From assembly GCA_043798375.1 (NCBI GenBank), contig JAZDOS010000042.1, positions 5,037 to 69,036 on the forward strand: 64,000 nucleotides of DNA, given 5' to 3'. The stretch is from Candidatus Omnitrophota bacterium. Lineage in GTDB: Bacteria > Omnitrophota > Gorgyraeia > 2-01-FULL-45-10. Shown in pieces: positions 34,134 through 57,392 of this stretch. Under the pieces are notes generated by a model. That model did not search any database. It was not told the origin of the DNA and saw only the letters and a program-made list of their open reading frames with translations. The position numbers and the translations under genes are program-made. Each line of letters starts with the position of its first letter. Within the stretch, counting starts at the first letter, position 1.

Positions 34134-35162
34134 ATGAAAACGCTAAGAGTCGGCATAATCGGCTGCGGGACGATATTCCCGATGCACGCCCGGTCGCTTA
34201 ACAATATAAAGAATGTGAAGCTTACCGCAGTCTGTGATATTAAGGAGCCGAGGGCGAAGGCCGCGGCCCGCGCTTATAGATGTAATTATTATACAAATTA
34301 TAAGAAAATGCTGGATGAGGCTGATCTTGATGCCGTCCACATCTGTACCCCGCACTACCTCCACATGCCGATGGTCCTCGAAGCCGCCAAGCGAAAGATC
34401 GACATTCTTACCGAGAAACCGATGGGGCTTAACCCGGCCGAAGGCCAGAAGGAGATAGGCGCCGCCAAAAGGACAGGCGTAACCTTCAGCGTGATCTCGC
34501 AAAATAGGTTCAATCCCGGCTCCCAACTTGTGAAAAACAGAATTAAAGACGGCTCGCTCGGGAAATTGAAAGCCGCAAAACTCGTCCTCACCTACCATAA
34601 GCCCGACAGTTATTATAAAAAGAGCGACTGGAAGGGGCGCAAAGATTTAGAAGGCGGCGGCGTAGTCATTGATCAGGCAATCCACTATCTTGATATAGTC
34701 AGATGGCTAATTCCGAGCCCCATCGATTACGTCGAGGCGAAGGTTTCAAGCCGCATGCATTCATTCGTAAACGTCGAAGATACGGCCGAAGGCGTGATGA
34801 AATTTAAAAACGGGTTTTATCTTTGTTTTTATCTCATCAATTGTTACTCGTTCGACGACGATCCTTTTATCGACATGGACTGCGAAAAGGCGAGGGTGCG
34901 CATAGTGAAGGACTCGGCATACATAGGATATTACAGCGGTAAGAATGAGAGTGCACGGCCGCGAGACGACGAATATATAGATTACGGCGACGGTGTCCGC
35001 GACTATTGGGGATATTGCCATTATAATCAGATCAGGGATTTCTATGATGCTATCCGCAAGCGCCGAAAGCCCGCGATAACGGGTGAAGACGCTCTGAAGA
35101 CGCAGAAACTCGTGTGGGCGATCTACGAATCCTCGAAGCGCAATAAGCGCGTGTATTTCTAA
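34134..35162 (+). CDS. Gfo/Idh/MocA-family NAD(P)-dependent oxidoreductase
   Basis: N-terminal Rossmann MKTLRVGIIGCGTIFPMHARSL, EKP motif LTEKPMG, and a C-terminal alpha/beta domain. Confidence 0.8.
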   Translation: MKTLRVGIIGCGTIFPMHARSLNNIKNVKLTAVCDIKEPRAKAAARAYRCNYYTNYKKMLDEADLDAVHICTPHYLHMPMVLEAAKRKIDILTEKPMGLNPAEGQKEIGAAKRTGVTFSVISQNRFNPGSQLVKNRIKDGSLGKLKAAKLVLTYHKPDSYYKKSDWKGRKDLEGGGVVIDQAIHYLDIVRWLIPSPIDYVEAKVSSRMHSFVNVEDTAEGVMKFKNGFYLCFYLINCYSFDDDPFIDMDCEKARVRIVKDSAYIGYYSGKNESARPRDDEYIDYGDGVRDYWGYCHYNQIRDFYDAIRKRRKPAITGEDALKTQKLVWAIYESSKRNKRVYF

Positions 35163-35170
35163 CCTGCCAA

Positions 35171-35187
35171 TTCTAACCAGGTTAGAA
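35171..35187. repeat. CTAACCAGGTTAG-family palindrome overlapping the stop codon of the oxidoreductase, followed by a ggttagaatatg direct repeat (x2)
   Basis: ttctaacc a ggttagaa. The same core is at 17125-17152 and 55095-55197. Confidence 0.7.
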
Positions 35188-35359
35188 TATGGGGGGTTAG
35201 AATATGATGAAGAACTGTTAAGCAATGCCGAAGAAATAGCGAAAATGTTATCGGGTCTGATTAATTCTTTACAAAGATAACTTTGTTTGGTATTATTTTT
35301 TCTTTAACCTATAAGCTTTGAACTATTAGCTATAAACTAAACGCGTAACGGAGAATAGT

Positions 35360-36409
35360 ATGGCGGTTGTTAGAGTAGCAGTAATCGGCTGCGGTAAGAT
35401 AGCGGAGCGCGCAAGCTTACCGAATCTGGTGAATTACAAGGAAAAGGTTGAGGTAAAGGCCCTCTGCGATATAGAGGAAGCGAAAGCAAAAAATTTAAAA
35501 GAACGGTTCGAAATTTCGGGCGCCGATATAGTCAAAGACTGGAAGAAGGTCGTGACAAGGCATGATATCGACGCTATTTTTGTCGATACGCCGAACTATC
35601 TTCATGAAGAGATGGCGATAGGAGCGGCGAATAACAAGAAACATGTCCTTGTCGAGAAACCCATTTCGATTACAGCTAAGGCCGCGGACAACATGGTCAA
35701 GGCCGCGAAGAAGACGGGCGTATATCTTATGGTAGAGCAGACCCAGAGGTTCGACCCGGTCCACCAGGCGGCGAAGAAGATCCTCGATTCCGGAATGCTG
35801 GGCAAGATCCACAATATCAGGGGGCGTATCGGCCACGCCGGGCCGGAATACTGGTCCGAAGGCAAAGCCCACTGGTTCTACGACAAGAAAAAGTCGGGCG
35901 GCGGCGCGATGATCGATATAGGCGTGCACATAACCGACCTTATAAGATGGTTCGCGAATAAGAAGATCGCCGAAGTATTCGCGACCATAAGAACGATAGA
36001 GAAGAAAGTGCCCGTAGACGATAACGCGACCGTCCTATTCAAATTTGAAGACGGCTCCAAGGGCGAGATCGAATGCAGTTGGACGACGAGGCCGTATGAA
36101 GTGTTGACCTTCGTCTACGGCAGTAAGGGCAAGATGATGACGGCGATCGGCACGGAGAAACCCGTTAAAGTTGTGATCGCCAGGACCGGCAAGGGCGAAG
36201 ATCCGAACTGCGCGCTGGAGGATATCTATCCGGAAATCGGATCGGGAAGCGGCTGGGAGAACGCCGTCCATTATTTTATCGATTGCGTTATTAACAAAGA
36301 GAAGCCTTTCGTCTCAGGCGTTGAGGGAAGAGAGACGATGCGCGTGATTAACGCGGCGTATGAGTCAAATGATAAAGGAAAGTGGATTAAAGTAATTAGT
36401 AAAGAGTAA
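35360..36409 (+). CDS. Gfo/Idh/MocA-family oxidoreductase (second paralog)
   Basis: VRVAVIGCGKIAERASLPNL, VEKPIS, and shared fold motifs. Confidence 0.8.
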   Translation: MAVVRVAVIGCGKIAERASLPNLVNYKEKVEVKALCDIEEAKAKNLKERFEISGADIVKDWKKVVTRHDIDAIFVDTPNYLHEEMAIGAANNKKHVLVEKPISITAKAADNMVKAAKKTGVYLMVEQTQRFDPVHQAAKKILDSGMLGKIHNIRGRIGHAGPEYWSEGKAHWFYDKKKSGGGAMIDIGVHITDLIRWFANKKIAEVFATIRTIEKKVPVDDNATVLFKFEDGSKGEIECSWTTRPYEVLTFVYGSKGKMMTAIGTEKPVKVVIARTGKGEDPNCALEDIYPEIGSGSGWENAVHYFIDCVINKEKPFVSGVEGRETMRVINAAYESNDKGKWIKVISKE

Positions 36410-36431
36410 TGAGTAAAGAGTAAGTTGTGCC

Positions 36432-36494
36432 GCCTTTTAATTACTCATTACTCATTACTCATTACTCATTACTCATTACGCATTACTCATTACT
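36432..36494. repeat. Tandem heptanucleotide microsatellite (ATTACTC)n of about 9 units (5 perfect plus degenerate units). It forms the 3' arm of a long hairpin with the gene's last codons (gagtaatgagtaaagagtaa)
   Basis: attactcattactcattactcattactcattactcattacgcattactcattactaattacga, read directly from the sequence. Confidence 0.9.
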
Positions 36495-36526
36495 AATTAC
36501 GAATCGCGTATTTTTAAGAGGACTTA

Positions 36527-37345
36527 ATGAAACTCGGACTATGCACGTGGTCATACAACAGGACATTTAAAGCGGGCAGGATGGATCTTGAGAAGCTTCT
36601 CCATATGTGCGCCGATGACTTGAAAGCCGGCGGCGTCGACATCATAGATATCCATTTCAGGAACGGAGATAATGTCGACAAACTTCTTGAGGACATGGAT
36701 TACCTCCTTAAGATAAAAAAGCTTGCCGCTGACCTCGCGATTACGATATCCGCGGTATCGCCGGGCAACAGCTTCGGGAAAGATAACCTCAAGGATGAGA
36801 AGGCAGAGGTAGACAAGATAAACAGATGGACCGACGTTGCCTATATCCTCGGCGCGCCGAATTTAAGGATATTTGCCGGATGGGCGCCGAAAGAGAAACA
36901 CGCCGAACTCTGGCCAAAAGTCGTAAATAGCGTCAAAGCTTGCGCCGCCTATGGCGCTAAAAAAGGCGTTGTGATGGCGGTAGAATCTCATAACGGCGGC
37001 GGATACCTCCCGACGTCGGTCGAAACGCACAAGCTTCTCGAAGACGTCGGCTCGCCGTGGGTCAGGCTGAATCTCGACACCGGCAACTACCGGGACCCGG
37101 ATATGTACGCGGCATTGAAAAAGTCTATCGCCTGCGCCACGCACATGCACTGCAAGATCCATAAGCTGTCGAAGGACGGAAAAGAGCTCGAATTCGATTT
37201 CGATAAAATCTTCAAGATTCTTAAAGACGCGAACTGGCGCGGTTTTTTCAACATCGAATACGAAGGAAAAGAGGATGAACTCGAATACGTCCCGAAATCC
37301 TTCGCGATGGTGCGGCAGTTTATGAAGAAGTACGAAATGTTCTAG
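36527..37345 (+). CDS. Sugar phosphate isomerase/epimerase (xylose-isomerase-like TIM barrel, AP endonuclease 2 family)
   Basis: MKLGLCTWSY... start typical of the family; conserved E/D/H metal ligands (AVESHNGG, NLDTGNY). Confidence 0.7.
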   Translation: MKLGLCTWSYNRTFKAGRMDLEKLLHMCADDLKAGGVDIIDIHFRNGDNVDKLLEDMDYLLKIKKLAADLAITISAVSPGNSFGKDNLKDEKAEVDKINRWTDVAYILGAPNLRIFAGWAPKEKHAELWPKVVNSVKACAAYGAKKGVVMAVESHNGGGYLPTSVETHKLLEDVGSPWVRLNLDTGNYRDPDMYAALKKSIACATHMHCKIHKLSKDGKELEFDFDKIFKILKDANWRGFFNIEYEGKEDELEYVPKSFAMVRQFMKKYEMF

Positions 37346-37359
37346 CGTATAACCATATT

Positions 37360-37395
37360 TGACCGACGCGGTCGGCGTACGCCGACCGCGTCGGT
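37360..37395 (+). terminator. Perfect 17-bp stem hairpin after the isomerase gene, with no clear U-tract
   Basis: gaccgacgcggtcggcg ta cgccgaccgcgtcggtc. Confidence 0.4.
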
Positions 37396-37409
37396 CGGCT
37401 AATGTCCAT

Positions 37410-38324
37410 ATGAAGAAAAAAAGGCCGGGATTTTTCGCGAAACTCAACGAACAGAAGATGTCCTATGTCTTCGTCGCCCCAGCGGTGCTTCTTTTCCTCA
37501 TCTTTGTTTTAGGCCCCCTGATAGCTTCATTCTACTGGTCGTTCACCGAATACGACGGCATACACGCGCCGGTTTGGGTGGGCCTGGCCAATTACAAGGC
37601 GATATTTTTTAACGACCCGCGTTTCTGGAAGGCGGTACGCAATACAGTTTTCTACACTGTGGGCGTGATACCGCCCGGCGTGGCGCTATCGCTTCTCCTT
37701 GCGATAGCCGTCGATCAGCAGATAAAAGGCAAGAATTTATTCCGTATGATATATTTTATACCTTCTGTCACGTCGGTCATCGCGATTTCGGTAATATGGA
37801 AATGGCTCTTCGCCGGGGAGAAGTACGGCCTCATCAATTATTTTCTGATATTGATCGGCCTGAAACCGGTGGACTGGTTGATGAGCCCCACCTTTACGCT
37901 TCCCGCCATCATGATAATGTCGATATGGGCCGGATTGGGCTACAATATGATACTCTTTTTGGCGGGCCTGCAGACTATACCCGCGACGGTTTACGAGGCG
38001 GCCGATATAGACGGCGCGAACGTCTGGGATAAATTCTGGAATATAACCCTTCCGCTTTTAAAACCTACGATGGTATTCGTCGTCATAATGGGGTTCATCG
38101 TTTCATTCCAGGTATTCGAACAGATTTACATAATGACGGAATCGGAATTCGGCATAGGCGGCGTCCTCGATTCGGCGCTGACCGTAGTGGCCTACCTTTA
38201 CGACATGGGATTCAGGAAGTTCCAGATGGGGTACGCCTCCGCGTTGGGTTATATCGTGTTCATAGTGGTATTCATAATAACGATAATCAACATAAGGTTT
38301 GTAAAAACGAAGGTTGATTATTAG
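37410..38324 (+). CDS. ABC sugar transporter permease (MalF/UgpA-type, CUT1 family)
   Basis: Six TM helices and the EAA-like loop EAADIDGANVWDKFWNITLP. Start moved to the ATG at 37410 because the ORF-track extension covers the hairpin. Confidence 0.8.
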   Translation: MKKKRPGFFAKLNEQKMSYVFVAPAVLLFLIFVLGPLIASFYWSFTEYDGIHAPVWVGLANYKAIFFNDPRFWKAVRNTVFYTVGVIPPGVALSLLLAIAVDQQIKGKNLFRMIYFIPSVTSVIAISVIWKWLFAGEKYGLINYFLILIGLKPVDWLMSPTFTLPAIMIMSIWAGLGYNMILFLAGLQTIPATVYEAADIDGANVWDKFWNITLPLLKPTMVFVVIMGFIVSFQVFEQIYIMTESEFGIGGVLDSALTVVAYLYDMGFRKFQMGYASALGYIVFIVVFIITIINIRFVKTKVDY

Positions 38325-38374
38325 TTCTGAAAATGCTATACTTTCAAAACATTTATAAAGAAAGGAAGGAAGAC

Positions 38375-39316
38375 ATGAAAACGGATAAGTATCCTATATG
38401 TAAACGGTTTGAGGGCAATCCCATCCTGACAGGCAGGGATTTTCCGCCTGAGGCCGATATTAAAAATGTTTTTAATTCCGGCATCGTGAAATACAATGAT
38501 ATTTATCTCATGGTTTGCCGGGTGGAAAACTCCGCTTTGCTTGACCGTTTTTGGATCGCGGAAAGCTCCGACGGCTATCATTTTAAACCGCGGCCGAAGC
38601 CGGTGGATATGCCCCACGACGATCCGATGTTTAAGAAATATGCCGACTGCATGTATTATGATCCGCGCGTGACAAGGATCGGGGATGTATATTATATGGT
38701 CCATGCCGCGCACTCAGGCCACACCTGCCGGCTAAGCCTGGTGAAAACGGAGGACTTTAAGAAATTTCAATGGATGGGCTTTATTTCCGAAACGGATAAC
38801 CGCAATGGGGTGCTTTTCCCGGAGAAGATCAACGGGTTGTACGCGCGCCTTGACCGGCCCAATACCGGGGCCGATACGGGAGATATCTGGGTGTCTTATT
38901 CTCCGGATCTGATCTTTTGGGGAAAGAGTGAATGCGTGTTCAGGAACTGGGAGGGGATCCGCTGGGCCTGGACAAAAATCGGGCCGGGAGCCGCTCCTAT
39001 CAAAACACCCGAGGGATGGTTGAATATTTTTCACGGAGTGCGCACTCAATGCAAATCGCATTTTGTTTATCAATTGGGTGTTTGCCTTCTGGATTTGAAG
39101 GATCCGTCAAAAGTCAAGGCTATGTCTGAAGACGCGATCCTGATTCCCGAAGAGCTTTACGAACTTGTGGGGCAGACTCCCAGCGTGGTCTTTACCTGCG
39201 GCGCTGTGCTGGAGGATAACGGCGAGGTCAAGCTTTATTACGGCGGCGCCGATACGGTTCAATGCGTGGCCATCACAAGCCTGGAGCGGCTTATCGACGC
39301 GTGTTATAATCGTTAA
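38375..39316 (+). CDS. GH130 family beta-mannoside phosphorylase-like protein (five-bladed propeller)
   Basis: FEGNPILTGRDFP...NSGIVKYNDIYLMVCRVE...DPRVTRIGDVYYMVHAA...LYYGGADT are typical GH130 blades. RBS gaaggaag lies before the ATG at 38375. Confidence 0.75.
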   Translation: MKTDKYPICKRFEGNPILTGRDFPPEADIKNVFNSGIVKYNDIYLMVCRVENSALLDRFWIAESSDGYHFKPRPKPVDMPHDDPMFKKYADCMYYDPRVTRIGDVYYMVHAAHSGHTCRLSLVKTEDFKKFQWMGFISETDNRNGVLFPEKINGLYARLDRPNTGADTGDIWVSYSPDLIFWGKSECVFRNWEGIRWAWTKIGPGAAPIKTPEGWLNIFHGVRTQCKSHFVYQLGVCLLDLKDPSKVKAMSEDAILIPEELYELVGQTPSVVFTCGAVLEDNGEVKLYYGGADTVQCVAITSLERLIDACYNR

Positions 39317-39352
39317 GATTAATCTGTAAAAAAGGGAAATGGAGGCAATAGA

Positions 39353-40810
39353 ATGAAAGAAGCTAATGTAGCCGATGGGAAGAAACAGTTCTCGCGTGAT
39401 CGTCTCCCGATTCCGACCAAGCTGGCCTATAGCCTTGGCACGGCAGTTGATATGTGGGGCCTCTGGCTGTACCCGGCCGTCGCTTTTGCGGTTTTTAATA
39501 TGTATTTGGGCATTGAGCCGTGGCTGGTGGGTTTGGGGATTACGCTGATCCGGGTCTGGGACGCGTTTATTGATCCTGTGGTGGGGTGGCTGTCCGATAA
39601 TTTGCGTTCCAGATGGGGCCGCCGCCGTCCTTTTATTCTGATCGCCGGTATTATATGCGGACTGTGCCTGCCGGTCCTGTTTTTGGTTTCACCATCATGG
39701 GTTGATATAAAATTCCTCGGCGTCTCCATGGTCTTCTGGTACATGGTGGTGTCCACCATGATCTATATGCCCATAGTCAGCGCTTTTACCGTACCTTACT
39801 ACAGCCTGGGAGCGGAAATGTCGCCTGATTATGAAGAACGCACCTCCATCATGTCCTATCGCAGTATTGCCCAAAAGATATCGGAATTGGGCAATTTTTA
39901 TGCCCTTCGGTTTACCAACCTGGCCTGGTTTCTTGTTCCGGGAACGGCGCAAAAGAATACCCTCATGGGAATGCGGGTCTACACATCGATACTGGGTGTG
40001 GTAATGGCCATTTTTGCCATAATCATTTTCTTCAGGGTTAAAGAACGCTACTATGAGAAAGTGGTGGTGAAGGTTACCAAGAAAATTTCAATCTTAAGCG
40101 GCTTTGGCGAGACTCTCAGGTGTAAGCCGTTCCGCCAGATGATGGTTATGGGCGGCGCTTTTACCCTGGGCACGAGCATGGTGGGCTCGCTCGGTTACTA
40201 TGCCACGGTTTTTTATGTATCCGGCGGCGACAAGATTATCGGGGATAACTGGCAATTCTGGATGGGTGTGGCTTTTATGCTGGGCGGCATTATAGGAGTT
40301 CCTCTGCATGCGAATCTTTCGCATCGTATCGGCAAACGCGAGGCGGCGGTGGTAGCCTGTCTCATAGGCATATGCGGTTACGCCGGTTCCTGGTTCCTGT
40401 ATACGCCGGCGATCCAGTGGCTGCAAACGATCTCGTCGTGTTTGATGGGAATGGCCGCGGCTTCTCTATGGATGCTGCATAGTTCCATCGGCGCCGACAT
40501 TATCGACTATGATGAGCTCAATACGAAAGAAAGAAGAGAAGGTTCTTTTACGGCCTGCGCTTCCTATATTCTAAAACTGGGAAATTCATTCGGGTATTAT
40601 TTTTCCGGCCTTATCCTGACATGGGCGGGTTTTACCTGGAAGCTTAAGGCGCAGGCGCCCCAGACCATATTCTGGATCCGCTCAAGCCTCGCTTTTTTGC
40701 CGGTCGTGGGCCTCATCATCGCTATTATTTTTGTTATGCGCGTGCCGTTGGCAAAACAAAAATCCGAAGAAATCCGAAAACAGCTCGAAGCGCGCAGGGG
40801 CACGGTATAA
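39353..40810 (+). CDS. MFS transporter, glycoside-pentoside-hexuronide (GPH):cation symporter family
   Basis: 12 TM helices and the N-terminal PTKLAYSLGTAVDMWG characteristic of MelB/GPH-like symporters. Confidence 0.7.
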   Translation: MKEANVADGKKQFSRDRLPIPTKLAYSLGTAVDMWGLWLYPAVAFAVFNMYLGIEPWLVGLGITLIRVWDAFIDPVVGWLSDNLRSRWGRRRPFILIAGIICGLCLPVLFLVSPSWVDIKFLGVSMVFWYMVVSTMIYMPIVSAFTVPYYSLGAEMSPDYEERTSIMSYRSIAQKISELGNFYALRFTNLAWFLVPGTAQKNTLMGMRVYTSILGVVMAIFAIIIFFRVKERYYEKVVVKVTKKISILSGFGETLRCKPFRQMMVMGGAFTLGTSMVGSLGYYATVFYVSGGDKIIGDNWQFWMGVAFMLGGIIGVPLHANLSHRIGKREAAVVACLIGICGYAGSWFLYTPAIQWLQTISSCLMGMAAASLWMLHSSIGADIIDYDELNTKERREGSFTACASYILKLGNSFGYYFSGLILTWAGFTWKLKAQAPQTIFWIRSSLAFLPVVGLIIAIIFVMRVPLAKQKSEEIRKQLEARRGTV

Positions 40811-40821
40811 GTAATCGTCTT

Positions 40822-40860
40822 ATTCAGCCTTGGCCGTAGGGGAGGTTTAAACCTCCCCTA
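40822..40860 (+). terminator. Rho-independent terminator: 14-bp GC-rich stem, 6-nt loop, T-tract
   Basis: ggccgtaggggagg tttaaa cctcccctacggcc tttt. Confidence 0.7.
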
Positions 40861-40902
40861 CGGCCTTTTGAGTAACGTTTAAAAATTACCGGCGGGAAGC
40901 TT

Positions 40903-45163: not shown

Positions 45164-45288
45164 GATTGCGTTAATCGGTTGCGGTTGCGCGGCTCGTCAC
45201 GTCAAATGTTATGTGTCTATCGTTAAAAAAGACGCAACCGATGTACGATAAACGAAACGAGCAGCGCAACCGATGGACGACAGACGAT
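45164..45288. repeat. Short (~125 bp) ORF-less copy of the inverted-repeat element family, immediately upstream of the response-regulator gene
   Basis: cggttgcggttgcgcggctcgtcacg ... aacgagcagcgcaaccgatgg, plus the internal gttatg..gacgcaaccgat segment shared with the long copy. Confidence 0.8.
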
Positions 45289-45291
45289 CCT

Positions 45292-49452: not shown

Positions 49453-49460
49453 AATTTTTT

Positions 49461-50063: not shown

Positions 50064-50158
50064 AGTAAAAAGTAAAAAGTAAAAAGGTAAAAGTGCAAGT
50101 AAAAATTAAAAATTTTGACTTTTAAATTGTAATTTTTCCTTTTTCCTTTTTACTTTTA
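50064..50158. repeat. AT-rich ~95-bp imperfect palindrome built from GTAAAAAG / CTTTTTAC repeats
   Basis: aagtaaaaagtaaaaagtaaaaaggtaaaagt ... acttttaccttt reverse-complement arms. The same motif forms the first 30 nt of ORF 43500. Confidence 0.7.
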
Positions 50159-50182
50159 CCTTTAACTTGGGTAGCAAGTGTA

Positions 50183-52552
50183 ATGAAGTACGGCTATTTT
50201 GACGACAAGAACCGCGAGTTCGTAATTACACGCCCCGACACGCCTACTCCGTGGATAAATTATTTAGGGTGCGATGAATATTGCGCCCTCATATCCAATA
50301 CCGCCGGCGGATACAGTTTCCACCGCGACCCCAAAGAGAGAAGAATCACAAGATACAGGTATAATAACATTCCCGCCGACAGGCCGGGCCGTTATATATA
50401 TTTGCGCGACCGGGATTCGGGCGATTACTGGCCGGCCACCTGGCAGCCGGTGTTAGAACCGAAAACCGCAAACCGAAAACCGCAAAATTATAAATACGAA
50501 TGCCGGCACGGGATGAGCTATACCAGGATCAAAAGCGGGTATAATGGCATAGCGGCAGAGACTACTTATTTTGTGCCCCTGAAGGAAAACCTGGAATTAT
50601 GGGTACTGAATATAAAAAATACCTCTAAGAGGAAGCGGAGGCTCTCCATATTTACCTACCTCGAATTCTGCCTGTGGCATGCCGTCATGGATATGACCGA
50701 CCTCCAGTATACCCTGAATATTTCAAAAGCGGTGTGCAGGAAGGATGTGATATACCACCTCACCGGTTATTTTCCTTCCGAAGGCAGGAACGATTTCGCG
50801 TTCTTTTCGTCCAGCGAAAAGGTCAGGGGTTTCGATTGCGACAGGGAAACATTTATCGGCCCCTATAATTCGGAAGCGAACCCGCTTGTTGTATCGCTCG
50901 GAAAGTCATTCAATTCCGTAAATTCAGGCGGTAACCCGATAGCCTCGCTCTGTAATACGATCACGCTGAAACCGTCGGAGGAGAAGACGGTCGTATTCTC
51001 ACTCGGCGTCAGCGATTCGATGAAAGAGGCGGATAATCTTATATCGAAATATAAAAGCCTCAAAAACGCCAGGGATGAATTTGAGAAACTCAAAGCCTGC
51101 TGGGCGCTGTATTTCGAGAATTACATTTGCGATACGCCGGACGATAAGGTCGATCTTATGGTAAATACGTGGAACCAGTATCAGTGCAGGACGACGTTTA
51201 ACTGGTCGCGTTCGGCCTCTTACTACGAATCCGGCATCGGCAGGGGAATGGGCTTCAGGGATTCGAATCAGGACACGCTCGGCGTCGTCCATGCCATTCC
51301 TGACAGGGTCAAGGCGAGGATCAAAGAGCTTCTGGAGTGCCAGTTCGAAAACGGCTCAACCTATCACCAATTCTTCCCGCTCACCAAAAAAGGCGAAAAG
51401 GGCGGCTACTCGGACGATCCGCTGTGGCTGGTCGTTTCGTGCTCCGGCTATATTAAAGAGACCGGGGACGCGGGATTCCTTAATGAAACGGTCCCGTTCA
51501 CCGATTCCGGGAAGGCGACCGTCTATGAACACCTGAAAAGGGCCATCGATTTCGTCTCTTCCAAAGTCGGCCCGCGCGGATTTCCTTTGATAGGATTTGC
51601 CGACTGGAACGACTGCCTGAACCTCACGGGGAAGAATAACGCCGCCCAGAGCGTATGGGTGGCGCAGTTCCTGGTATGGGCCGCGAATGAATTCTCGAGG
51701 CTCGCCGGGCTTTTAGGCAGGGCCGGCGATGTCAGGGAATACACCCGCGCCGCGAACGCGATGAAGGATAGGATAAATAAAATAGCCTGGGACGGAGATT
51801 GGTATATTCGCGCTTATGACGACGATGGTAATCCTGTCGGCTCATCCAAAAACAAAGAAGGCAGGATTGATCTATTGACGCAAGTCTGGGCCGTAATCGG
51901 CGGAATCGCCGGAGATAAGAGGGCGGTTCGATGCATGGATATGGTGAAAAAATATCTCGATTCGAAACACGGTATAATGCTCATCGCCCCGCCATACACG
52001 GGCTACGATGCAAAGATCGGCGCGGTCGGGACATTCGCGCCGGGCCTGAAAGAGAACGGCGGTATATTCTGCCACGCGAATCCCTGGGGGATGATAGCCG
52101 AGACCATGATCGGCCGCGGCAATGCCGCGTTCGATTATTATGCCAAGATCGCCCCTGCGTTCAGAAACGACATATCGGATACTCATTCGACGGAACCTTA
52201 TGTTTACGCGCAGTATATAGCCGGAAGCGGCCATCCGGCATTCGGCCGCGGGAGGAATTCGTGGCTTACCGGAAGCGCCGCATGGAATTTTTACGCGGTA
52301 ACAGCGTATATTCTGGGCGTGAGGCCCGATTATAAAGGCCTCATAGTCGATCCGTGCATACCGGCGAAATGGAAATCATTCAAGGTAAAGAGGGCCTTCA
52401 GGGGCGCGACATACGAGATAAAGGTCAAAAACCCGAAAGGCGCGCAGAAGGGCGTCAAATCGATGACGGTCGATGGCGTAAAAGTGCCGGGCAAGATCAT
52501 CCCGGCGCGGAAGGATAAGAATGTCCATAAAGTTGAAGTGGTGATGGGGTGA
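50183..52552 (+). CDS. GH94 family disaccharide phosphorylase (cellobiose/cellodextrin-phosphorylase-like)
   Basis: MKYGYFDDKNREFVITRPDTPTPWINYLG...LISNTAGGYSFHRDPKERRITRYRYNNIP closely follows the GH94 N-terminal hallmark. Also GMGFRDSNQD, and the length of 789 aa fits. Confidence 0.85.
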   Translation: MKYGYFDDKNREFVITRPDTPTPWINYLGCDEYCALISNTAGGYSFHRDPKERRITRYRYNNIPADRPGRYIYLRDRDSGDYWPATWQPVLEPKTANRKPQNYKYECRHGMSYTRIKSGYNGIAAETTYFVPLKENLELWVLNIKNTSKRKRRLSIFTYLEFCLWHAVMDMTDLQYTLNISKAVCRKDVIYHLTGYFPSEGRNDFAFFSSSEKVRGFDCDRETFIGPYNSEANPLVVSLGKSFNSVNSGGNPIASLCNTITLKPSEEKTVVFSLGVSDSMKEADNLISKYKSLKNARDEFEKLKACWALYFENYICDTPDDKVDLMVNTWNQYQCRTTFNWSRSASYYESGIGRGMGFRDSNQDTLGVVHAIPDRVKARIKELLECQFENGSTYHQFFPLTKKGEKGGYSDDPLWLVVSCSGYIKETGDAGFLNETVPFTDSGKATVYEHLKRAIDFVSSKVGPRGFPLIGFADWNDCLNLTGKNNAAQSVWVAQFLVWAANEFSRLAGLLGRAGDVREYTRAANAMKDRINKIAWDGDWYIRAYDDDGNPVGSSKNKEGRIDLLTQVWAVIGGIAGDKRAVRCMDMVKKYLDSKHGIMLIAPPYTGYDAKIGAVGTFAPGLKENGGIFCHANPWGMIAETMIGRGNAAFDYYAKIAPAFRNDISDTHSTEPYVYAQYIAGSGHPAFGRGRNSWLTGSAAWNFYAVTAYILGVRPDYKGLIVDPCIPAKWKSFKVKRAFRGATYEIKVKNPKGAQKGVKSMTVDGVKVPGKIIPARKDKNVHKVEVVMG

Positions 52553-52563
52553 AAGGTAAAAGG

Positions 52564-52662: not shown

Positions 52663-52680
52663 AAAGGAGTAGCGCTAAGA

Positions 52681-53820
52681 ATGAGTGAGTTGCCGTTTAT
52701 ATCAATAATCAATCCTATAAGGAACGTTGAGAGGACTATAGAGACAAACCTGCAATATTTGATCGGCATAGATTATCCGAAAGAGAGATGCGAGATAGTA
52801 TTCGGCGACGGCGGCTCCACCGACAGGACCGTCGATATAATAAGGGACTGGCAGAAAAGATACGAGCTCATAAAGCTCGTAATAGTCCCGAATTCCAAGT
52901 CACCCGGCGAGGCGAGAAACGCGGCGCTCAAAATGGCCAAGGGCGATTATATCCTATTCACCGACGGCGACTGCGCCCCGAGAAAAGACTGGGCGAAAAA
53001 ACTTCTGGAACCGTTCCTGAAAGACCCGTCTATCGGCATGGTCGGCGGCGAGATACATACATTGAGGACCGACCCCGATAACGACGTCGAGTCCTATTGC
53101 GAACAGACGAAGTTCCTGACGGTGGCCGGCAGGTGCCTCGCGACGGAAGAAGGTTACTATCCCGGCATCACACAGGACCTTCCTTCGGAAGTGAACGGCA
53201 ATATCCACAGCCCGTTCTTCGCGACGGCGAACGCAGCTGTCAGTAAAAAGGCGGCGGACGCCATAGGGCGGGAATTCTGGCACGAGATAACGAGCGAGGA
53301 CGTCGACTTTAGTTTGAGGATCCTGAAGAAAGGTTTCAGGCTTTATTACAAACCATCCGCCATAGTCGACCATATGCACAGGGTGACGCTTCAAGCGTAC
53401 TGCAAACAGCTGTACGGATACGGGTTCGGCCATCCGCTCGCGGTCCTGAAACACGCCAAAAAAGTCATCGAGATACAGTTCCAGTGGACGCCGCGCTACA
53501 TAACGTTCGTAATGCCCTCATCCGTTAGGGGTATTATCTACTTGGGCGATTATCATTTTATGCATTTATTTGGGATGGCTTTTGTGGTAAACTTATTACA
53601 GACATTATTCACGCAGAACCTGACAATCTGGCTTTGGATATGGCTTGCGCTTACCATGTTCTTCAAATATAGGTATTTCAGGCCGATGTTGAAACTTACG
53701 CCCCGCGGCAAGTTTTTGAAATGGTGCTGGATCAGATATGTCTCGAACTGGGCGCTTATGAAGGGCGGATTCAAAGGCGGCAGGACATTCGGAGTGATTT
53801 ATCTCGAGTCAAGCTGGTAG
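52681..53820 (+). CDS. Family 2 glycosyltransferase (GT-A fold) with a C-terminal membrane extension
   Basis: DGGSTDRT, FTDGDC (DXD), then hydrophobic helices after residue ~290. Confidence 0.75.
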   Translation: MSELPFISIINPIRNVERTIETNLQYLIGIDYPKERCEIVFGDGGSTDRTVDIIRDWQKRYELIKLVIVPNSKSPGEARNAALKMAKGDYILFTDGDCAPRKDWAKKLLEPFLKDPSIGMVGGEIHTLRTDPDNDVESYCEQTKFLTVAGRCLATEEGYYPGITQDLPSEVNGNIHSPFFATANAAVSKKAADAIGREFWHEITSEDVDFSLRILKKGFRLYYKPSAIVDHMHRVTLQAYCKQLYGYGFGHPLAVLKHAKKVIEIQFQWTPRYITFVMPSSVRGIIYLGDYHFMHLFGMAFVVNLLQTLFTQNLTIWLWIWLALTMFFKYRYFRPMLKLTPRGKFLKWCWIRYVSNWALMKGGFKGGRTFGVIYLESSW

Positions 53821-53838
53821 ATTTAAACGAGGTGAGAA

Positions 53839-55098
53839 ATGGCGTTACGGGAAGGGACATTAAAAAGCGAGCGCTTCACTGAAAAGGAACGGCGCAATCT
53901 TGCCATACTCGATATCATCAGAAGGACCAGAGAAGTCTCAAGGGCCGAGATTTCTAAGATCACCCACCTTAATATAGTAACAATATCCAACTACATAGAT
54001 GATTACATTGCCAAAGGCCTCGTCCTCGAGAAGGGATACGATGTATCCAGCGGCGGAAGAAGGCCGGAACTCCTGGAGATCAATTCTAAATTCGGATACA
54101 CTATCGGCATAGACCTCGGTTCGCCCCATATCATGGAGAATTCCATGATTGTGGGCACGCTGGTGGATACCGCAGGGAAGATCATCTGCAAGGTGAAGAC
54201 CAAAAAAGAGGAAGAGTCCCAGGAAAATTTTATAAACAGGGTAACAGGCATTGTCAGGGACCTTTACGGCAGGTCTAAAGTGGAAAAGGCGAGGGTGAAA
54301 GGCGTCGGGATAGCGATATGGGGTGTCCTGGACAGATATAAAGGCACTGTGAGGTATGCGGTCGAGAAAGGCAGCGTCTTCAGCTACAACGCGCTTCAAT
54401 CTTCAATCGAAAAGGAGTTTAGCGTCCCCACGCTCGTAGAGCATGACGCTACAGCCGGCGCCCTGGGAGAGAAGTGGATGGGGCTGGGCTTGAGCCAGGA
54501 GGCCGAGAACATACTTTATATGTGCTCCGATTCCAGCTGCGGCCTTATCCTGAACGGCGAATTGTATTACGGCGTCTCAAAAAGCGCCGGAGAATTGAAT
54601 ATAAACCCTCCATCGCCCGATTATAAGGACGATAACTGCTGGGCAAAATATGATTACGGATGCGGCTTCAGGTCGAGGGGCATAGATCTCGGGATTTCTT
54701 CGCGCGCGAAATCCCGTTTAAGCCAGAATAAAAACGGCAATTCCAAAATCCTCGAGCTTGTGAACGGCAAGCTTGACAGCGTTTCACTTAATACGATAAT
54801 AGAAGCGGCCAGGCTTCAGGATAAACTTGCGATAGAGCTTCTGTCCGAAGCGGGAGATTATCTCGGCGCGAAGATATCGTTTCTTATAAACCTGTTCAAC
54901 CCGGATTCCATCGTGATCGGAAGAGGCATGGAAAAGGGCGGCGACATATTCATGGACGCCGTGAGGAAGAGCGTTAAAAAGTGGGCTTACGAAGAATCGC
55001 TCAAGGTCGTCAGGATCGTGCCGGCGTCCCTCGGCGAGGATTCTATAGCCTGCGGCGCGTCGGCGCTTGTAATGCAGCAGATATTTGCGAAGATCTAA
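53839..55098 (+). CDS. ROK-family transcriptional regulator (N-terminal wHTH plus sugar-kinase-like domain)
   Basis: LAILDIIRRTREVSRAEISKITHLNIVTISNYI HTH; ROK fold GIDLGSP...GIAIWGVLD...CGCG-like Cys cluster CSDSSCG. Confidence 0.75.
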   Translation: MALREGTLKSERFTEKERRNLAILDIIRRTREVSRAEISKITHLNIVTISNYIDDYIAKGLVLEKGYDVSSGGRRPELLEINSKFGYTIGIDLGSPHIMENSMIVGTLVDTAGKIICKVKTKKEEESQENFINRVTGIVRDLYGRSKVEKARVKGVGIAIWGVLDRYKGTVRYAVEKGSVFSYNALQSSIEKEFSVPTLVEHDATAGALGEKWMGLGLSQEAENILYMCSDSSCGLILNGELYYGVSKSAGELNINPPSPDYKDDNCWAKYDYGCGFRSRGIDLGISSRAKSRLSQNKNGNSKILELVNGKLDSVSLNTIIEAARLQDKLAIELLSEAGDYLGAKISFLINLFNPDSIVIGRGMEKGGDIFMDAVRKSVKKWAYEESLKVVRIVPASLGEDSIACGASALVMQQIFAKI

Positions 55099-55197
55099 CC
55101 AGGTTAAACCTTGTGGTAACCTGACAGATTTAACCTGGTTAGTAACGCTCTAACCAGGTTAAACCTTGTGGTAACCTGACAGATTTAACCTGGTTAG
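55095..55197. repeat. Two tandem 48-bp units, each a 14-bp-stem hairpin of the CTAACCAGGTTAG family, between the ROK gene stop and the binding-protein gene
   Basis: ctaaccaggttaaaccttgtggtaacctgacagatttaacctggttag repeated twice with a 7-nt spacer. Confidence 0.85.
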
Positions 55198-55209
55198 AAA
55201 AAGGGAAAG

Positions 55210-56439
55210 ATGAGAAAAATATTCGCCATATTTCTTATAAGCTGTCTCCTGGTATCCGGCTGCGGTAAATCCGAGGGCAGGAAGGCGCCGGGCGAGACCC
55301 GGATAACGATGTGGCTCATCGGCTCCGAGGCCCAGGCGCTCACGATAAAAAAATTAGCCGAAGAATTTTACAGCCAGACCGGGATAAAGGTGAAATGCGA
55401 CGCGATATCGTGGGGCGACGCGCATTCGAAGTACCTTACCTCTATCGCGGGAGGCGTTGCGCCGGACATAGGCACGATGGGGCTTACGTGGGGGGCCGAG
55501 TTTGGCAAACTCGATTCCATGGTAGATTTGAAGAAAGAGTATCCGCAAGAGGTAAATTCGATAAAGGAAACGGTCTTCGCCGGCCTTTGGAATTCGATAG
55601 AGCATAAAGGCAAGGTCTACGGCATACCTTTCGACATGACCGAATACATTCTTTATTACAGAAATGATATTATAGCGAATCCTCCGCGCGACTGGGAAGA
55701 GCTGGTCAGCCTGTTGACGGATTTAAATAAAAAAGGACAGGGGATGATCTTCGACTGGGGATCTTTAAGCTGGATAGGATATTCCCCCTTCCTATGGCAG
55801 GCAGGCGGTGATTATTATAATGAGGATTATTCGGCCATCACGATAGATTCGGAAGCCGCTGTCAAAGGGATGAATTTCTTCGCCGGCCTGTACCTGAAAT
55901 ATAATGTTCCGAAGACAAAGATCCCGATAGAGCAGGGGATGAGAACGGGAGATTTTCCTATAGCGATCTCAGGAAACTGGAAGATAGACGACCTCAGGCT
56001 GCTGGCGCCGGAGATAGCGGGAAAATGGTCCATCGCTACATTGCCCAAAGGCCCGACGGGAAAGAAGACAGCGTTTATCGGAGGCAGGATAATGGGCATA
56101 TTCAGCCAGTCGAAACATAAGGTTGCGGCGTGGAAGTTCATAAAGTTTCTATTCAGGCCCGAAACTCAAGCTAAACTCTATGAAGCGGCGCTTGCGGAAC
56201 AGGATACGTACCTGCCTCCGAGCATGAAGGCATGGCCCATGCTTAGTATGGACCCGAAGTTTAAAGAGGTCCTGGTTTCTCAAGCCAATGACTCCAAGGG
56301 GCCTCCGGTAGTCGCGAGCTGGGATTCATGCGCCAGATATATGGACGAGGCTATTCAGAAGGTGATTTTGCAGAAGGCCGACGCGAAGAAGGAATTGGAG
56401 ATCGCGAAAACACAGCTGGAAAGATTGCTTAAGAAGTAG
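55210..56439 (+). CDS. ABC transporter extracellular sugar-binding lipoprotein (family 1 SBP, CUT1)
   Basis: Lipoprotein signal LISCLLVSGCG; typical SBP_bac_1 length and motifs. Confidence 0.75.
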   Translation: MRKIFAIFLISCLLVSGCGKSEGRKAPGETRITMWLIGSEAQALTIKKLAEEFYSQTGIKVKCDAISWGDAHSKYLTSIAGGVAPDIGTMGLTWGAEFGKLDSMVDLKKEYPQEVNSIKETVFAGLWNSIEHKGKVYGIPFDMTEYILYYRNDIIANPPRDWEELVSLLTDLNKKGQGMIFDWGSLSWIGYSPFLWQAGGDYYNEDYSAITIDSEAAVKGMNFFAGLYLKYNVPKTKIPIEQGMRTGDFPIAISGNWKIDDLRLLAPEIAGKWSIATLPKGPTGKKTAFIGGRIMGIFSQSKHKVAAWKFIKFLFRPETQAKLYEAALAEQDTYLPPSMKAWPMLSMDPKFKEVLVSQANDSKGPPVVASWDSCARYMDEAIQKVILQKADAKKELEIAKTQLERLLKK

Positions 56440-56477
56440 TATAATGATTTTGCTTCACAAAATTCGGGGGTGACATT

Positions 56478-57392
56478 ATGAAGAAACAGGCGGTGTTTGT
56501 CGTTGCGGTGTTTATGCTTGCCTCTTTGATATGCGTTGAAAAGGCGCATGCCGGCGCCTGGACAGTCCCGAAATACAAAGTCTGGGCGGAGTATTACATG
56601 AAATGGAATTACGCGAAGGATACCTATAACGAGAGCGAGAATTTTACGTCGAGCGGCAACCATTCGAAGAACTTCAGGTCATGGGAATTCGTGCAGGAAC
56701 CGAAGCTGGAGTATGGTATTACAGACTATCTTAACTTCCTCTACAGTATGGAATTTAAAGAGGGCCACTACAAGGAATACGACAGGCCTCCAAGCTGGGG
56801 CCCTTTTACCAAGAAGAACCACGGCCTCACAAATGTCAAAATAGGAGGCAAGTGGCGTTTTCTCGAAAAACCGGTCGTGCAGAGCCTGCAGGGCAAGTTT
56901 TTTATATATCCCGGCTATGGGAATTACGTAAGCGAAGCAAATGGCGGAGCCGACGGATATCCGTATCAGCCTTCGATAGGCTACGGCGATGACGCGTTCG
57001 AATTGAGATGGCTCATGGGACAATCGTTCAAATTTCCCATCAGGGATGATTGGAGGCTGCCGGTCTACTGGGGCACCGAGATAGGCTACAGGTGGAGGAG
57101 TAAAGCCGTCTGCAACGATATCCCGTACTTCTTCGAATGCGGCTTCTGGCCATCCTCCTGGTTTTTGGTCAAGACGGAACTGGACGGATACAGGTTCCAT
57201 GGCGGCACGGGCAGTATCAAGGAGAGCTACGGCATATGGCGTATCGGCGGCGTATGGCAGGTCTTCGGCGACAGCACTCTCAGGGCCGGCAATAAGCTCT
57301 TCAATATAGAATTTCAATACGGCATGGTGGTCTGGGGAAGGAATACGAACGCGGCGCAGGAATGGGTGCTGAAGGTCCAGACACAGTTCTAG
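56478..57392 (+). CDS. Putative outer-membrane beta-barrel protein
   Basis: Signal peptide, alternating amphipathic aromatic-rich strands, C-terminal ...VQTQF ending in Phe. Confidence 0.35.
   Translation: MKKQAVFVVAVFMLASLICVEKAHAGAWTVPKYKVWAEYYMKWNYAKDTYNESENFTSSGNHSKNFRSWEFVQEPKLEYGITDYLNFLYSMEFKEGHYKEYDRPPSWGPFTKKNHGLTNVKIGGKWRFLEKPVVQSLQGKFFIYPGYGNYVSEANGGADGYPYQPSIGYGDDAFELRWLMGQSFKFPIRDDWRLPVYWGTEIGYRWRSKAVCNDIPYFFECGFWPSSWFLVKTELDGYRFHGGTGSIKESYGIWRIGGVWQVFGDSTLRAGNKLFNIEFQYGMVVWGRNTNAAQEWVLKVQTQF

Follow-up and report, generated by a model that had tools for sequence, protein, structure and literature searches.

The mannan loci MULL and MULS of Roseburia intestinalis (La Rosa et al. 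2019), in which ATP-binding cassette (ABC) uptake, a glycoside hydrolase (GH) family GH130_2 enzyme, a phosphomutase, and a GH113 enzyme have been experimentally established (PMC6385246), represent the closest experimentally established analogue of the locus described here, and Faecalibacterium prausnitzii possesses a mannan system related to that of Roseburia (PMC8262883). The present locus lies at positions 34134-57392 of a 64-kb stretch of DNA (64,000 nucleotides, contig JAZDOS010000042.1; hereafter the window) from a Candidatus Omnitrophota bacterium and, as judged from its sequence, probably serves the catabolic utilization of β-1,4-mannan or glucomannan by diderm Omnitrophota by means of an ABC importer rather than SusC/SusD. 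The Omnitrophota, which have not been brought into culture, are mostly portrayed as cells that are ultra-small, depend on a host, or live as predators. In full-text literature searches, mannan, GH113, and GH130 did not come up as subjects of any Omnitrophota paper, and the key papers on the phylum are silent on all three. Giant proteins with PGM/PMM and other sugar-metabolism domains, such as those encoded upstream of the locus, have already been described (10.1101/2023.11.21.568195; 10.64898/2026.06.07.730766).

Gene organization and conservation of the locus

Positions refer throughout to the whole 64-kb stretch, and L001-L031 are labels for the related loci that were compared. Protein families were assigned by Pfam profiles against their curated cut-offs, and NCBIfam was also run on the window proteins. 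Relatives were compared by tblastn of all window proteins together with called-gene tables; the phosphomannomutase (PMM) gene, used as a query, gave 23 loci, mostly labelled Omnitrophota, the others carrying Planctomycetia, Auribacterota, Anammoxibacter, or other labels.

The locus contains 19 long open reading frames (ORFs), which without exception lie on the + strand, as does nearly everything else in the window, and it is preceded by three consecutive giant ORFs of 5669, 3397, and 1973 aa. A preliminary description of the same DNA had proposed β-mannoside/β-glycan utilization with a phosphorolytic core, and this proposal held, the GH-A proteins being GH113 and the gene starting at 38333 or 38375 being GH130. 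Nearly all of its gene calls were right: the 19 + strand ORFs are present where it had placed them, and the families it named are borne out by Pfam with scores far exceeding the curated cut-offs. Its inventory overlooked only a family 2 glycosyltransferase (GT2, 52681-53820) and an outer-membrane barrel (56478-57392).

Gene order in L001, L002, and L013 is identical to that of the window. A core order also recurs in distant Omnitrophota, consisting of permease, permease, GH113, carbohydrate-binding module (CBM), CBM, GH113, ROK regulator, and binding protein; it was found in L003, L012, L015, L020, L021, L028, L030, and L031 with protein identities of 38-90%. L030 retains the window arrangement (62-89% protein identity) apart from its adjacent permeases, while in L012 (Ca. 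Omnitrophus magneticus), L015 (Ca. Tantalella), L020, L021, and partly L014 and L017, a PMM(-PMI) gene precedes the core and the first GH113 is an F5/8C-GH113 protein. As read from these alignments, the locus is modular, with accessory modules apparently inserted in or directly beside one old core. GT2 and GH94 are accessory modules, both of which are lacking in L003, L012, L015, and L021.

PMM homologues with 38-79% identity were also seen on contigs binned as a Methanophagales archaeon (L016, JAUWVD010000026.1) and as "uncultured Planctomycetia" (L004/L017/L020/L021). The latter contigs carry a full Omnitrophota-type core locus and are probably mislabelled or mis-binned.

Proposed route of mannan utilization

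In the route proposed below, the family assignments alone are direct results, and the individual steps are inferred from those families and from localization signals. Two exported GH113 enzymes, one of which carries a CBM32-like F5/8-type-C domain, may cut the polymer, which could be held by two secreted stand-alone CBM27-like proteins. The resulting oligosaccharides would pass the outer membrane via a lineage-specific 12-stranded barrel, be captured by the binding lipoprotein, and be imported by two CUT1 permeases energized by an ATPase encoded elsewhere, and the GPH symporter may provide a second entry route. In the cytoplasm, GH130 could convert β-1,4-mannosyl units by phosphorolysis to mannose-1-phosphate, from which PMM would form mannose-6-phosphate, and GH94 may release glucose-1-phosphate from β-1,4-glucosyl disaccharides derived from glucomannan or cellodextrin. 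Expression could be controlled by the ROK regulator and an OmpR/histidine-kinase pair. The distribution of hydrophobic leaders follows the same division, since both GH113s, both CBMs, the binding protein, and the barrel have leaders and GH130, GH94, and PMM have none, as is usual where capture takes place outside the cell or in the periplasm and phosphorolysis in the cytoplasm.

With regard to its assembly, the old core (permease, permease, GH113, CBM, CBM, GH113, ROK, binding protein, and barrel) may have gained a GH130-GPH-PMM cassette between its permease genes, and the response-regulator/kinase pair, a CBM-GH94-GT2 module, and a Gfo-Gfo-TIM module could have been added likewise. Modular gain around an old core would account for both the "scattered" transporter parts and the "duplication" pointed out in the preliminary description.

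Exported GH113 enzymes and CBM27-like proteins

The predicted polymer-acting and polymer-binding proteins are encoded by four genes.

43500-45158, + strand, exported β-mannanase with an F5/8-type-C (CBM32-like) domain and a GH113 domain (Pfam F5_F8_type_C, 74 bits; GH113, 202 bits)
47697-48287, + strand, secreted stand-alone CBM27-like mannan-binding protein, CBMa (Pfam Mann_GBD_bact and CBM27; AlphaFold2 (AF2) model with Foldseek)
48415-49452, + strand, exported GH113 β-mannanase, GH113b (Pfam GH113, 223 bits; signal peptide)
49461-50063, + strand, secreted stand-alone CBM27-like protein, CBMb (Pfam Mann_GBD_bact, 40.1 bits; CBM27, 29.2 bits)

The GH113 profile (PF22612) has a cut-off of 27. 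GH113b matches the solved β-mannanases 5ylh, 4cd6, and 7dv7 (PDB) with E-values of 1e-35 to 4e-40, the range in which both GH113 proteins match solved β-mannanases, and the catalytic Glu positions of both (IGTEL for the acid/base; FPEVG or FTEVG for the nucleophile) align with 5ylh and with each other. In the first GH113 protein, the N-terminal hydrophobic leader ends in Cys and is followed by a low-complexity linker.

CBMa reaches PF21253 with 27.8 bits (cut-off 27) and PF09212 with 22.4 bits (cut-off 20), so that the margins are small. Its AF2 model has a predicted local distance difference test (pLDDT) score of 84, and the top Foldseek neighbours of the model are the mannanase CBM 1wky, CsCBM27-1 in complex with mannohexaose (1pmh), and 1of4 (E-values of 1e-9 to 5e-9, TM-scores of approximately 0.5-0.63). 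A protein with 100% identity to CBMa is recorded in a metagenome-assembled genome labelled Candidatus Omnitrophota bacterium (NCBI). All source names given among the listed matches of its 315 homologues are Omnitrophota or Omnitrophica, and six Trp residues (W43, W80, W93, W125, W141, and W155) are invariant in the family alignment. The profile matches and the modelled β-sandwich fold of CBMa make the CBM27-like proteins candidate mannan binders.

The preliminary description had also seen a unit of [CBM][GH-A hydrolase] occurring twice and took it as a local duplication. Its two component observations were sound, because CBMa and CBMb are indeed paralogues (44% identity, E=4e-64) and the two GH113 domains share 43% identity. 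The second unit does not exist as such, since CBMb precedes GH94, as that description had half-acknowledged, and a local duplication is contradicted by the finding that separate orthologues of CBMa and CBMb exist in L001, L002, L013, and L030 (68-87% identity), those of CBMb extending to L031. A recent tandem duplication of [CBM][GH113] is thus ruled out by the 43-44% identity of the paralogues and by their separate orthologues, which place the paralogy before the separation of these lineages. This conclusion does not draw on the deep branching of a neighbour-joining tree, which lacked bootstrap support. Related genomes follow the order GH113-CBM-CBM-GH113(-CBM-GH94), with two CBM paralogues or three, and L031 has all three, arranged as GH113-CBM-CBM(lipoprotein)-GH113-CBM-GH94. 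CBMa corresponds to the copy that directly precedes the second GH113; this copy is a lipoprotein in L003, L012, L015, L021, and L031, and CBMb travels with GH94-GT2. By their sequence relationships, the CBM and GH113 copies are best described as ancient paralogues in a modular locus with three CBM lineages.

Phosphorolytic enzymes and associated genes

The following four genes encode the predicted cytoplasmic enzymes and the GT2 protein.

38333-39316, + strand, GH130 β-mannoside phosphorylase, probably of the β-1,4-mannooligosaccharide type, without signal peptide (Pfam PF04041)
40903-42579, + strand, phosphomannomutase (α-D-phosphohexomutase), without signal peptide (PF02878, PF02879, PF02880, and PF00408)
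50183-52552, + strand, GH94 cellobiose-phosphorylase-like enzyme, without signal peptide (PF17167, 516 bits; PF06165, 286 bits)
52681-53820, + strand, GT2 glycosyltransferase with a hydrophobic C-terminus (Pfam Glycos_transf_2)

GH130 covers positions 18-319 of the 320 positions of PF04041 with 178.5 bits (cut-off 26). Its nearest solved relatives (PDB) are TM1225 (1e-57), UhgbMP (2e-53), and RaMP2 (6e-47), whereas the 4-O-β-D-mannosyl-D-glucose phosphorylases gave just 2e-32 to 8e-29, and the NCBIfam equivalogs for β-1,2-acting GH130 enzymes were not reached (209 vs 550 bits and 165 vs 450 bits). Phosphorylase chains as a whole matched at 1e-57 to 1e-29, in contrast to approximately 1e-9 for hydrolase-type GH130 chains. 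The alignment with TM1225 retains YDPRV, NRNGVLFP, L(D/N)RP, and (F/Y)HGV, among which we take DPR to be the catalytic motif and the basic motifs to form the phosphate site. GH130 phosphorylases are told apart from GH130 hydrolases by the conserved catalytic Asp and basic phosphate-binding residues (PMC4599007), and TM1225 and RaMP2 are β-1,4-mannooligosaccharide phosphorylases (PMC8950772). Judged by profile and motif alignment, the window enzyme is a phosphorylase rather than a hydrolase.

PMM matches the solved phosphomannomutase 4hjh (PDB) at 1e-64 and retains the phosphoserine loop TGSHIP, the metal loop DGDSDR, and the phosphate-binding loop RPSGN. An origin of this stand-alone PMM as a copy of the PMM domain of the second giant protein is ruled out, their sole similarity spanning 84 residues at 30% identity (E=1e-4).

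GH94 aligns with the cellobiose phosphorylase 3qde (PDB) over residues 1-789 with an E-value of 6.6e-250 and scores lower against chitobiose, cellodextrin, laminaribiose, and cellobionic-acid phosphorylases (cellobiose 835 vs chitobiose 639 bits); by this full-length similarity it is cellobiose-phosphorylase-like. The window GH94 is just 63-64% identical to the GH94 proteins of L001, L002, and L013, which share 81-82% identity among themselves, while its flanking proteins CBMb and GT2 show 86-89% identity to L001 and closer GH94 relatives occur in other Omnitrophota (89%, 77%, and, in L030, 74%). The departure of GH94 from its flanks suggests an in-place replacement or recombination of GH94 alone. 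GT2 invariably follows GH94 in L024, L026, L030, and L031. A specific role for GT2 was sought and not obtained, as it gave generic matches only (MftF-like, 121 bits against a cut-off of 280; PDB E-values of approximately 1e-12 over the N-terminal 100 residues). Where GT2 is lacking, a gene of the GH116 β-glucosidase family stands in, in L028 beside GH94; in L003, which lacks GH94, GH116 probably occupies the GT2 position, a 726-aa ORF there being assigned by size and position only. A β-glucosidase-family gene at this position fits a glucose-containing substrate.

These enzymes also bear on another possible target. In place of a plant-type polymer substrate, the locus could digest mannose-containing surface glycans or N-glycan cores (Man-β-1,4-GlcNAc) of attached cells, the giant proteins forming part of the same attack apparatus. 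GH130 matches the N-glycan-active UhgbMP nearly as well as TM1225, an F5/8-type-C domain is present, the giant ORFs are syntenic with the locus, and a predatory or parasitic life, with giant proteins that break down the surfaces of target cells, has been proposed for Omnitrophota (PMC10066038; 10.1101/2023.11.21.568195). However, linear β-1,4-mannan is indicated by the GH113 and CBM27-like modules, GH94 favours cellobiose over chitobiose phosphorylase, and N-glycan enzymes of the GH18, GH20, GH2, GH92, and sialidase types were not found in the locus by Pfam. As a weaker point, we know of no prey group with β-1,4-mannan walls in these habitats. Foraging on prey or host glycans is therefore considered quite unlikely relative to the utilization of β-1,4-mannan or glucomannan.

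Transport and the separation of the permease genes

The genes assigned to transport, together with a hairpin located between two of the cassette genes, are as follows.

37359-38324, + strand, CUT1 ABC permease 1, MalF-like with 6 transmembrane segments (Pfam BPD_transp_1; hydropathy)
39353-40810, + strand, GPH-family glycoside:cation symporter (Pfam MFS_2, 226 bits)
40832-40865, + strand, intrinsic-terminator-like hairpin in the GPH/PMM spacer (15-bp stem with 11 GC, followed by TTTT)
42594-43451, + strand, CUT1 ABC permease 2, MalG-like with 6 transmembrane segments (Pfam BPD_transp_1, 75 bits; hydropathy)
55210-56439, + strand, CUT1 solute-binding lipoprotein (Pfam SBP_bac_8 and SBP_bac_1; lipobox LVSGC)
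56478-57392, + strand, predicted 12-stranded outer-membrane β-barrel of 304 aa, Omnitrophota-specific (AF2 model and Foldseek)

Two BPD_transp_1 permeases with six transmembrane segments each and a family-1 binding protein are those of a CUT1 importer. The probable start of permease 1 is the ATG at 37410, as alignments to relatives open near residues 18-21. The symporter scores 190.6 bits against TIGR00792 (gph), which is under the curated cut-off of 231 bits, and its gene adjoins GH130 in every case (L001-L008, L013, and L031). The preliminary description was also correct in reporting no ATPase: LSGG[QEM] and the Walker A motif GxxGxGK[ST] are absent from all reading frames of the 64-kb window, and the ABC ATPase motifs (LSGGQ and Walker A) were likewise not found in the 441 kb of related loci (31 loci). 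CUT1 systems commonly share an ATPase encoded elsewhere. The missing local ATPase is therefore normal for CUT1 and does not exclude membership of this family.

The ABC parts had been described as unusually dispersed. The permease genes are truly separated, but "unusually" is not warranted given a simple origin by a cassette placed between them. They are adjacent in L030, L012, L014, L015, L017, L020, and L021, whereas in the group of the window GH130-GPH-PMM lies between them, and adjacency in both L030 and the distant relatives indicates that the split is a derived insertion of the cassette. Precise loss of the cassette in L030 would, on the same sequences, be a less parsimonious alternative. 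The hairpin with its T-run is found at the same spot in L001, L003, and L005-L008, although its sequence differs in L003 and L005-L008, and the two permeases are probably on separate transcripts because of this terminator-like structure after GPH.

The separation raises the question of whether the locus is a functional unit at all. Its sugar modules (Gfo/TIM, GH130-GPH-PMM, GH113/CBM/ABC, and GH94-GT2) could be unrelated neighbours by inherited synteny that act on different glycans, such as cellodextrins and mannans. The modules are independently gained and lost among relatives, a terminator-like hairpin divides the locus, the history of GH94 differs from that of its flanks, and unrelated downstream genes are equally syntenic. 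However, every accessory module inserts in or directly beside the same core, the position of the cassette between the permease genes means that both permeases must still be expressed for a working transporter, and mannose or glucose in β-1,4 linkage, of which glucomannan is made, is the predicted target of each identifiable enzyme. We thus regard independent modules as a very unlikely explanation compared with a common function in β-mannan or glucomannan utilization.

The barrel protein has no Pfam or NCBIfam match. It starts with a signal peptide and has Phe at its C-terminus, its AF2 model (pLDDT 83.5) consists of 12 strands, and its Foldseek neighbours are the outer-membrane channels COG4313 (4rl8) and FapF, with TM-scores of approximately 0.6. 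The family gave 112 matches, for which every source name given was Omnitrophota or Omnitrophica, and in L024, L026/L027, and L028 its gene, even where inverted, is the neighbour of the gene for the binding protein. The model makes this protein a candidate oligosaccharide channel. It is the sole predicted outer-membrane protein in 34134-57392, and no Pfam match to a SusC-like TonB-dependent receptor or SusD was obtained among the ORFs of this interval. The locus is thus not a canonical Bacteroidota-type polysaccharide utilization locus and resembles the ABC-based loci of other phyla.

Regulators, oxidoreductases, and points against the proposed route

The remaining six genes of the locus encode regulators, oxidoreductases, and a TIM-barrel protein.

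34134-35162, + strand, Gfo/Idh/MocA oxidoreductase 1 (Pfam GFO_IDH_MocA and C-terminal domains)
35360-36409, + strand, Gfo/Idh/MocA oxidoreductase 2 (Pfam)
36527-37345, + strand, xylose-isomerase-like TIM barrel of a sugar isomerase, epimerase, or lyase family (Pfam AP_endonuc_2, 99.9 bits)
45211-45960, + strand, OmpR-type response regulator (Pfam Response_reg and Trans_reg_C)
46111-47574, + strand, membrane sensor histidine kinase with 2 transmembrane segments (residues 10-28 and 179-197), HAMP, HisKA, and HATPase_c (Pfam)
53839-55098, + strand, ROK-family regulator (NagC/Mlc-like) with an N-terminal DNA-binding region, a conserved member of the core (Pfam ROK)

The NagC model aligns across residues 22-414 of the ROK protein, and the probable start of the response regulator is near 45292, as the alignments of relatives begin at residue 28. 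No RNA family was found in the window by Rfam, and a sigma-70 promoter scan gave a signal no higher than the shuffled expectation. Oxidoreductase 1 is kept upstream of the first permease in L001, L002, L004, and L013, and its NCBIfam matches (IolG and UDP-GlcNAc 3-dehydrogenase) are without exception under the cut-off. The best solved relatives of oxidoreductase 2 are the C-glycoside 3-oxidase DgpA (E=4e-32) and 1,5-anhydro-D-fructose reductase, which serve as a lead only. The TIM-barrel protein has weak PDB and NCBIfam matches, and its gene lies 14-62 nt upstream of the permease. A glycoside 3-dehydrogenase and lyase pathway of the DgpA/DgpBC, BT2157-2159, or levoglucosan type was considered for this trio and is kept only as a lead, the matches being sub-threshold.

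Several observations weigh against the proposed route. It gives no account of GT2, the oxidoreductase pair, or the TIM-barrel protein, and the pathway is locally incomplete, since mannose-6-phosphate isomerase, hexokinase, and an ABC ATPase were not found in the window. The nearest solved relative of the binding protein, at only 153 bits, is Lin1841, which we take to be a β-1,2-glucooligosaccharide binder. The candidate role of the barrel as a sugar channel is drawn from its modelled fold and its adjacency only. An endo-mannanase action of the exported GH113s is assumed, and the solved GH113 enzymes include exo-acting, intracellular types (PMC6385246). Furthermore, the downstream housekeeping genes (M48, agmatinase-like, and PvlArgDC) are syntenic as well, and gene order in this region is therefore kept partly by descent alone.

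Giant proteins upstream of the locus

The three giant ORFs precede the locus without change of strand.

99-17108, + strand, giant protein 1, 5669 aa (HAD (Hydrolase_3), MbnB-like, and NAGPA matches; approximately 12 hydrophobic segments)
17412-27605, + strand, giant protein 2, 3397 aa (signal peptide, ManC-like nucleotidyltransferase, and PMM-like domain; linked to the locus by synteny only)
28145-34066, + strand, giant protein 3, 1973 aa (signal peptide or anchor; Pfam PFK, 92 bits; linked to the locus by synteny only)

In giant protein 2, the motifs of the ManC-like (GGGGERMWPLS and FIEKPKG) and PMM-like (TASHLP, DADGDR, and RPSGTS) domains are intact, and a cupin/PMI-like match is weak and sub-threshold (16.8 bits). 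Giant protein 3 has the PFK-like motifs SGGESPGVN, PKTIDRD, and MGR. Homologues of the N-terminal and PMM regions of giant protein 2 lie upstream of the locus in L015, L020, and L021, and a 35% identical homologue of giant protein 3 lies upstream in L001.

The preliminary description had fitted these proteins into the phosphorolytic route, and the ManC, PMM, and PFK domains and the synteny were substantiated; a simple shared cytoplasmic pathway was not, as giant proteins 2 and 3 start with Sec-type signal peptides, which GH130, GH94, and PMM lack. It is paradoxical that apparently exported proteins should contain enzymes that depend on nucleotides and ATP. A compartment conflict of this kind has been noted before for other giant Omnitrophota proteins (10.1101/2023.11.21.568195).

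A series of orthologues of the stand-alone window PMM always lies directly upstream of the permease pair. In L012 (9968-12921), the orthologue is a separate gene followed by a PMI-like gene; in L020 (9977-12775), it is part of a 932-aa PMM-PMI fusion; in L015 (8276-12856), it lies inside a 1527-aa ORF; and in L021 (5657-14110), it lies inside a 2818-aa ORF with a giant-protein-2-like, leader-bearing N-terminus. It is conceivable, if unlikely, that the mannan locus and the upstream giant genes form one conserved functional unit in which pathway-completing PMM, PMI-like cupin, ManC, and PFK have been progressively fused into leader-bearing giants. Synteny alone provides weak evidence for such a link because unrelated downstream genes are syntenic too. 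If this were the case and the giants acted outside the cytoplasm or in another cell, sugar-phosphate or nucleotide-sugar chemistry would take place in an unexpected compartment, coupled to glycan harvesting; if the giants, despite their leaders, stayed in the cytoplasm, they would represent megaproteins fused as a "metabolon", and the idea of a surface coat would be overturned for at least this class of giant proteins in Omnitrophota. The fixed position of the locus beside giant genes with ManC, PMM, PMI-like, and PFK domains offers a tractable entry to giant-protein function.

The ManC-like domain also invites a biosynthetic explanation, in which the ManC and PMM domains of giant protein 2, GT2, and reversed phosphorylases would build a mannan- or glucomannan-like envelope polymer of the cell itself, to be trimmed by the GH113s and CBMs and exported by the barrel. 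It would make use of the intact ManC-like and PMM-like domains, the strict linkage of GT2 with its hydrophobic C-terminus to GH94, the outer-membrane barrel adjoining the locus, and the reversibility of phosphorylases, TM1225 making mannan in vitro (PMC8950772). In contrast, the conserved core consists of an importer, a ROK regulator, and hydrolases, with GT2 and GH94 being accessory and absent from four relatives, and the GPH symporter is an uptake device. Cytoplasmic GH130, GH94, and PMM opposite exported GH113s and CBMs form a standard catabolic layout, and no flippase, Wzx/Wzy, or synthase-type export genes were seen in the Pfam scans. Biosynthesis or remodelling of an own β-glycan thus appears highly improbable, and catabolic mannan or glucomannan utilization is retained as the preferred explanation.

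Like the published giant Omnitrophota proteins (10.1101/2023.11.21.568195; 10.64898/2026.06.07.730766), those of the window possess PGM/PMM, nucleotidyltransferase, PFK, and HAD domains and are apparently exported. Unlike here, mannan, GH113, and GH130 are not mentioned in either preprint on searching their text for these terms, and the link of giant genes to a mannan uptake locus and the PMM/PMI fusion series do not appear to be described in the two preprints.

Downstream genes and repeats

Downstream of the barrel gene, a 90-aa ORF without a known domain occupies 57545-57817, and ORFs of 87-91 aa are present at the same place in L024, L025, and L026/L027. The conserved block at 57940-62796 encodes an M48 peptidase into which an EF-hand is inserted, a protein of 345 aa without Pfam match, an arginase/agmatinase-family protein, a pyruvoyl-dependent arginine decarboxylase, and a 392-aa ORF whose match to HypF is confined to the Kae1-like C-terminal part of the latter. 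In L024 and L026/L027, the first four of these genes are syntenic; L028 retains M48, the arginase-family gene, and PvlArgDC only, and the HypF-like ORF is present at a displaced position in L024 and L027.

One repeat lies within the locus.

55094-55197, no strand assigned, exact tandem duplication (55 nt x 1.9) upstream of the binding-protein gene, containing the palindrome TAACCWGGTTA four times

The palindrome has seven exact copies, all intergenic, against approximately 0.5 expected by chance, in the spacers between giant proteins 1 and 2 (17120-17144), between the two oxidoreductases (35174-35184), and between ROK and the binding protein (55094-55197). It is not present in the same spacers of relatives, the ROK-to-binding-protein spacer of L024 being approximately 15 nt, and it therefore does not qualify as a conserved ROK operator joining giant protein 2, oxidoreductase 2, and the binding protein in one regulon. 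The repeat may be an operator or a repetitive extragenic palindromic (REP)-like element. Between the barrel gene and the small ORF (57414-57544) are arrays in which a GAGGTTGCC-AAA-GGCAACCTC hairpin precedes GAGGTTGACAGGTAA units, with periods of 40, 30, and 15 nt, and a related hairpin lies directly upstream of giant protein 2 (17354-17390). Heptamer arrays are found in the spacer between oxidoreductase 2 and the TIM barrel (36391-36500; (ATTACTC) x 8.7 facing AGTAATG/AGTAAAG) and between CBMb and GH94 (50062-50163; (AAAGTAA) x 7.4 and (TTTTTCC) x 4.4).

Significance and comparison with known systems

As a locus of carbohydrate-active enzymes, the system is ordinary, and its interest lies in the phylum, the accessory parts, and the giant-gene neighbourhood. 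A conserved modular β-mannan/glucomannan locus would imply a conventional saccharolytic capacity in at least several Omnitrophota lineages, and mannan could then serve as a concrete substrate for Omnitrophota enrichment or stable-isotope probing. The locus also offers uncharacterized parts, namely exported GH113s as putative sole depolymerases, three free-standing CBM27-like lineages, and a new family of predicted outer-membrane barrels.

TM1225 of Thermotoga maritima (PDB 1VKD) is the closest solved relative of the window GH130. Its gene cluster presumably shares with the window a ROK-family regulator, ABC binding proteins, a secreted mannanase, and a diderm-like cell, and presumably differs in having Opp-type binding proteins and a GH5 mannanase and no GH113, GH94, stand-alone CBMs, GPH symporter, or giant genes. 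The GH130 pathways of Bacteroides fragilis and Ruminococcus albus, which we take to combine GH130 with a GPH symporter and a cellobiose 2-epimerase, resemble the window in the adjacent GH130/GPH pair. In contrast to these pathways, the window has no epimerase or SusC/SusD, and its GH130 is probably of the short oligosaccharide type and not the Man-Glc-specific GH130_1.

The window, as predicted from its sequence, has in common with the Roseburia system a GH113 in the locus, a dedicated transcriptional regulator, uptake of manno-oligosaccharides by a CUT1 ABC system with a binding protein, and a phosphomutase that feeds glycolysis with the mannose-1-phosphate formed by cytoplasmic phosphorolysis, for which Roseburia uses GH130_2 and the window a GH130 probably of this type. 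In Roseburia, depolymerization is carried out outside the cell by a GH26, and the GH113 acts within the cell as an exo-mannosidase at the reducing end, whereas exported GH113s are the only candidate depolymerases in the window, where GH26, the pair of GH130_1 and epimerase, CE2/CE17 esterases, GH36, GH1, and GH3 were not found by Pfam. Glucose units in the window are apparently processed via the GH94 phosphorylase, and the LacI regulator of Roseburia is replaced by ROK and a two-component pair. Furthermore, unlike Roseburia, the host of the window is diderm, and its locus encodes a dedicated outer-membrane barrel and free-standing secreted CBM27-like proteins.

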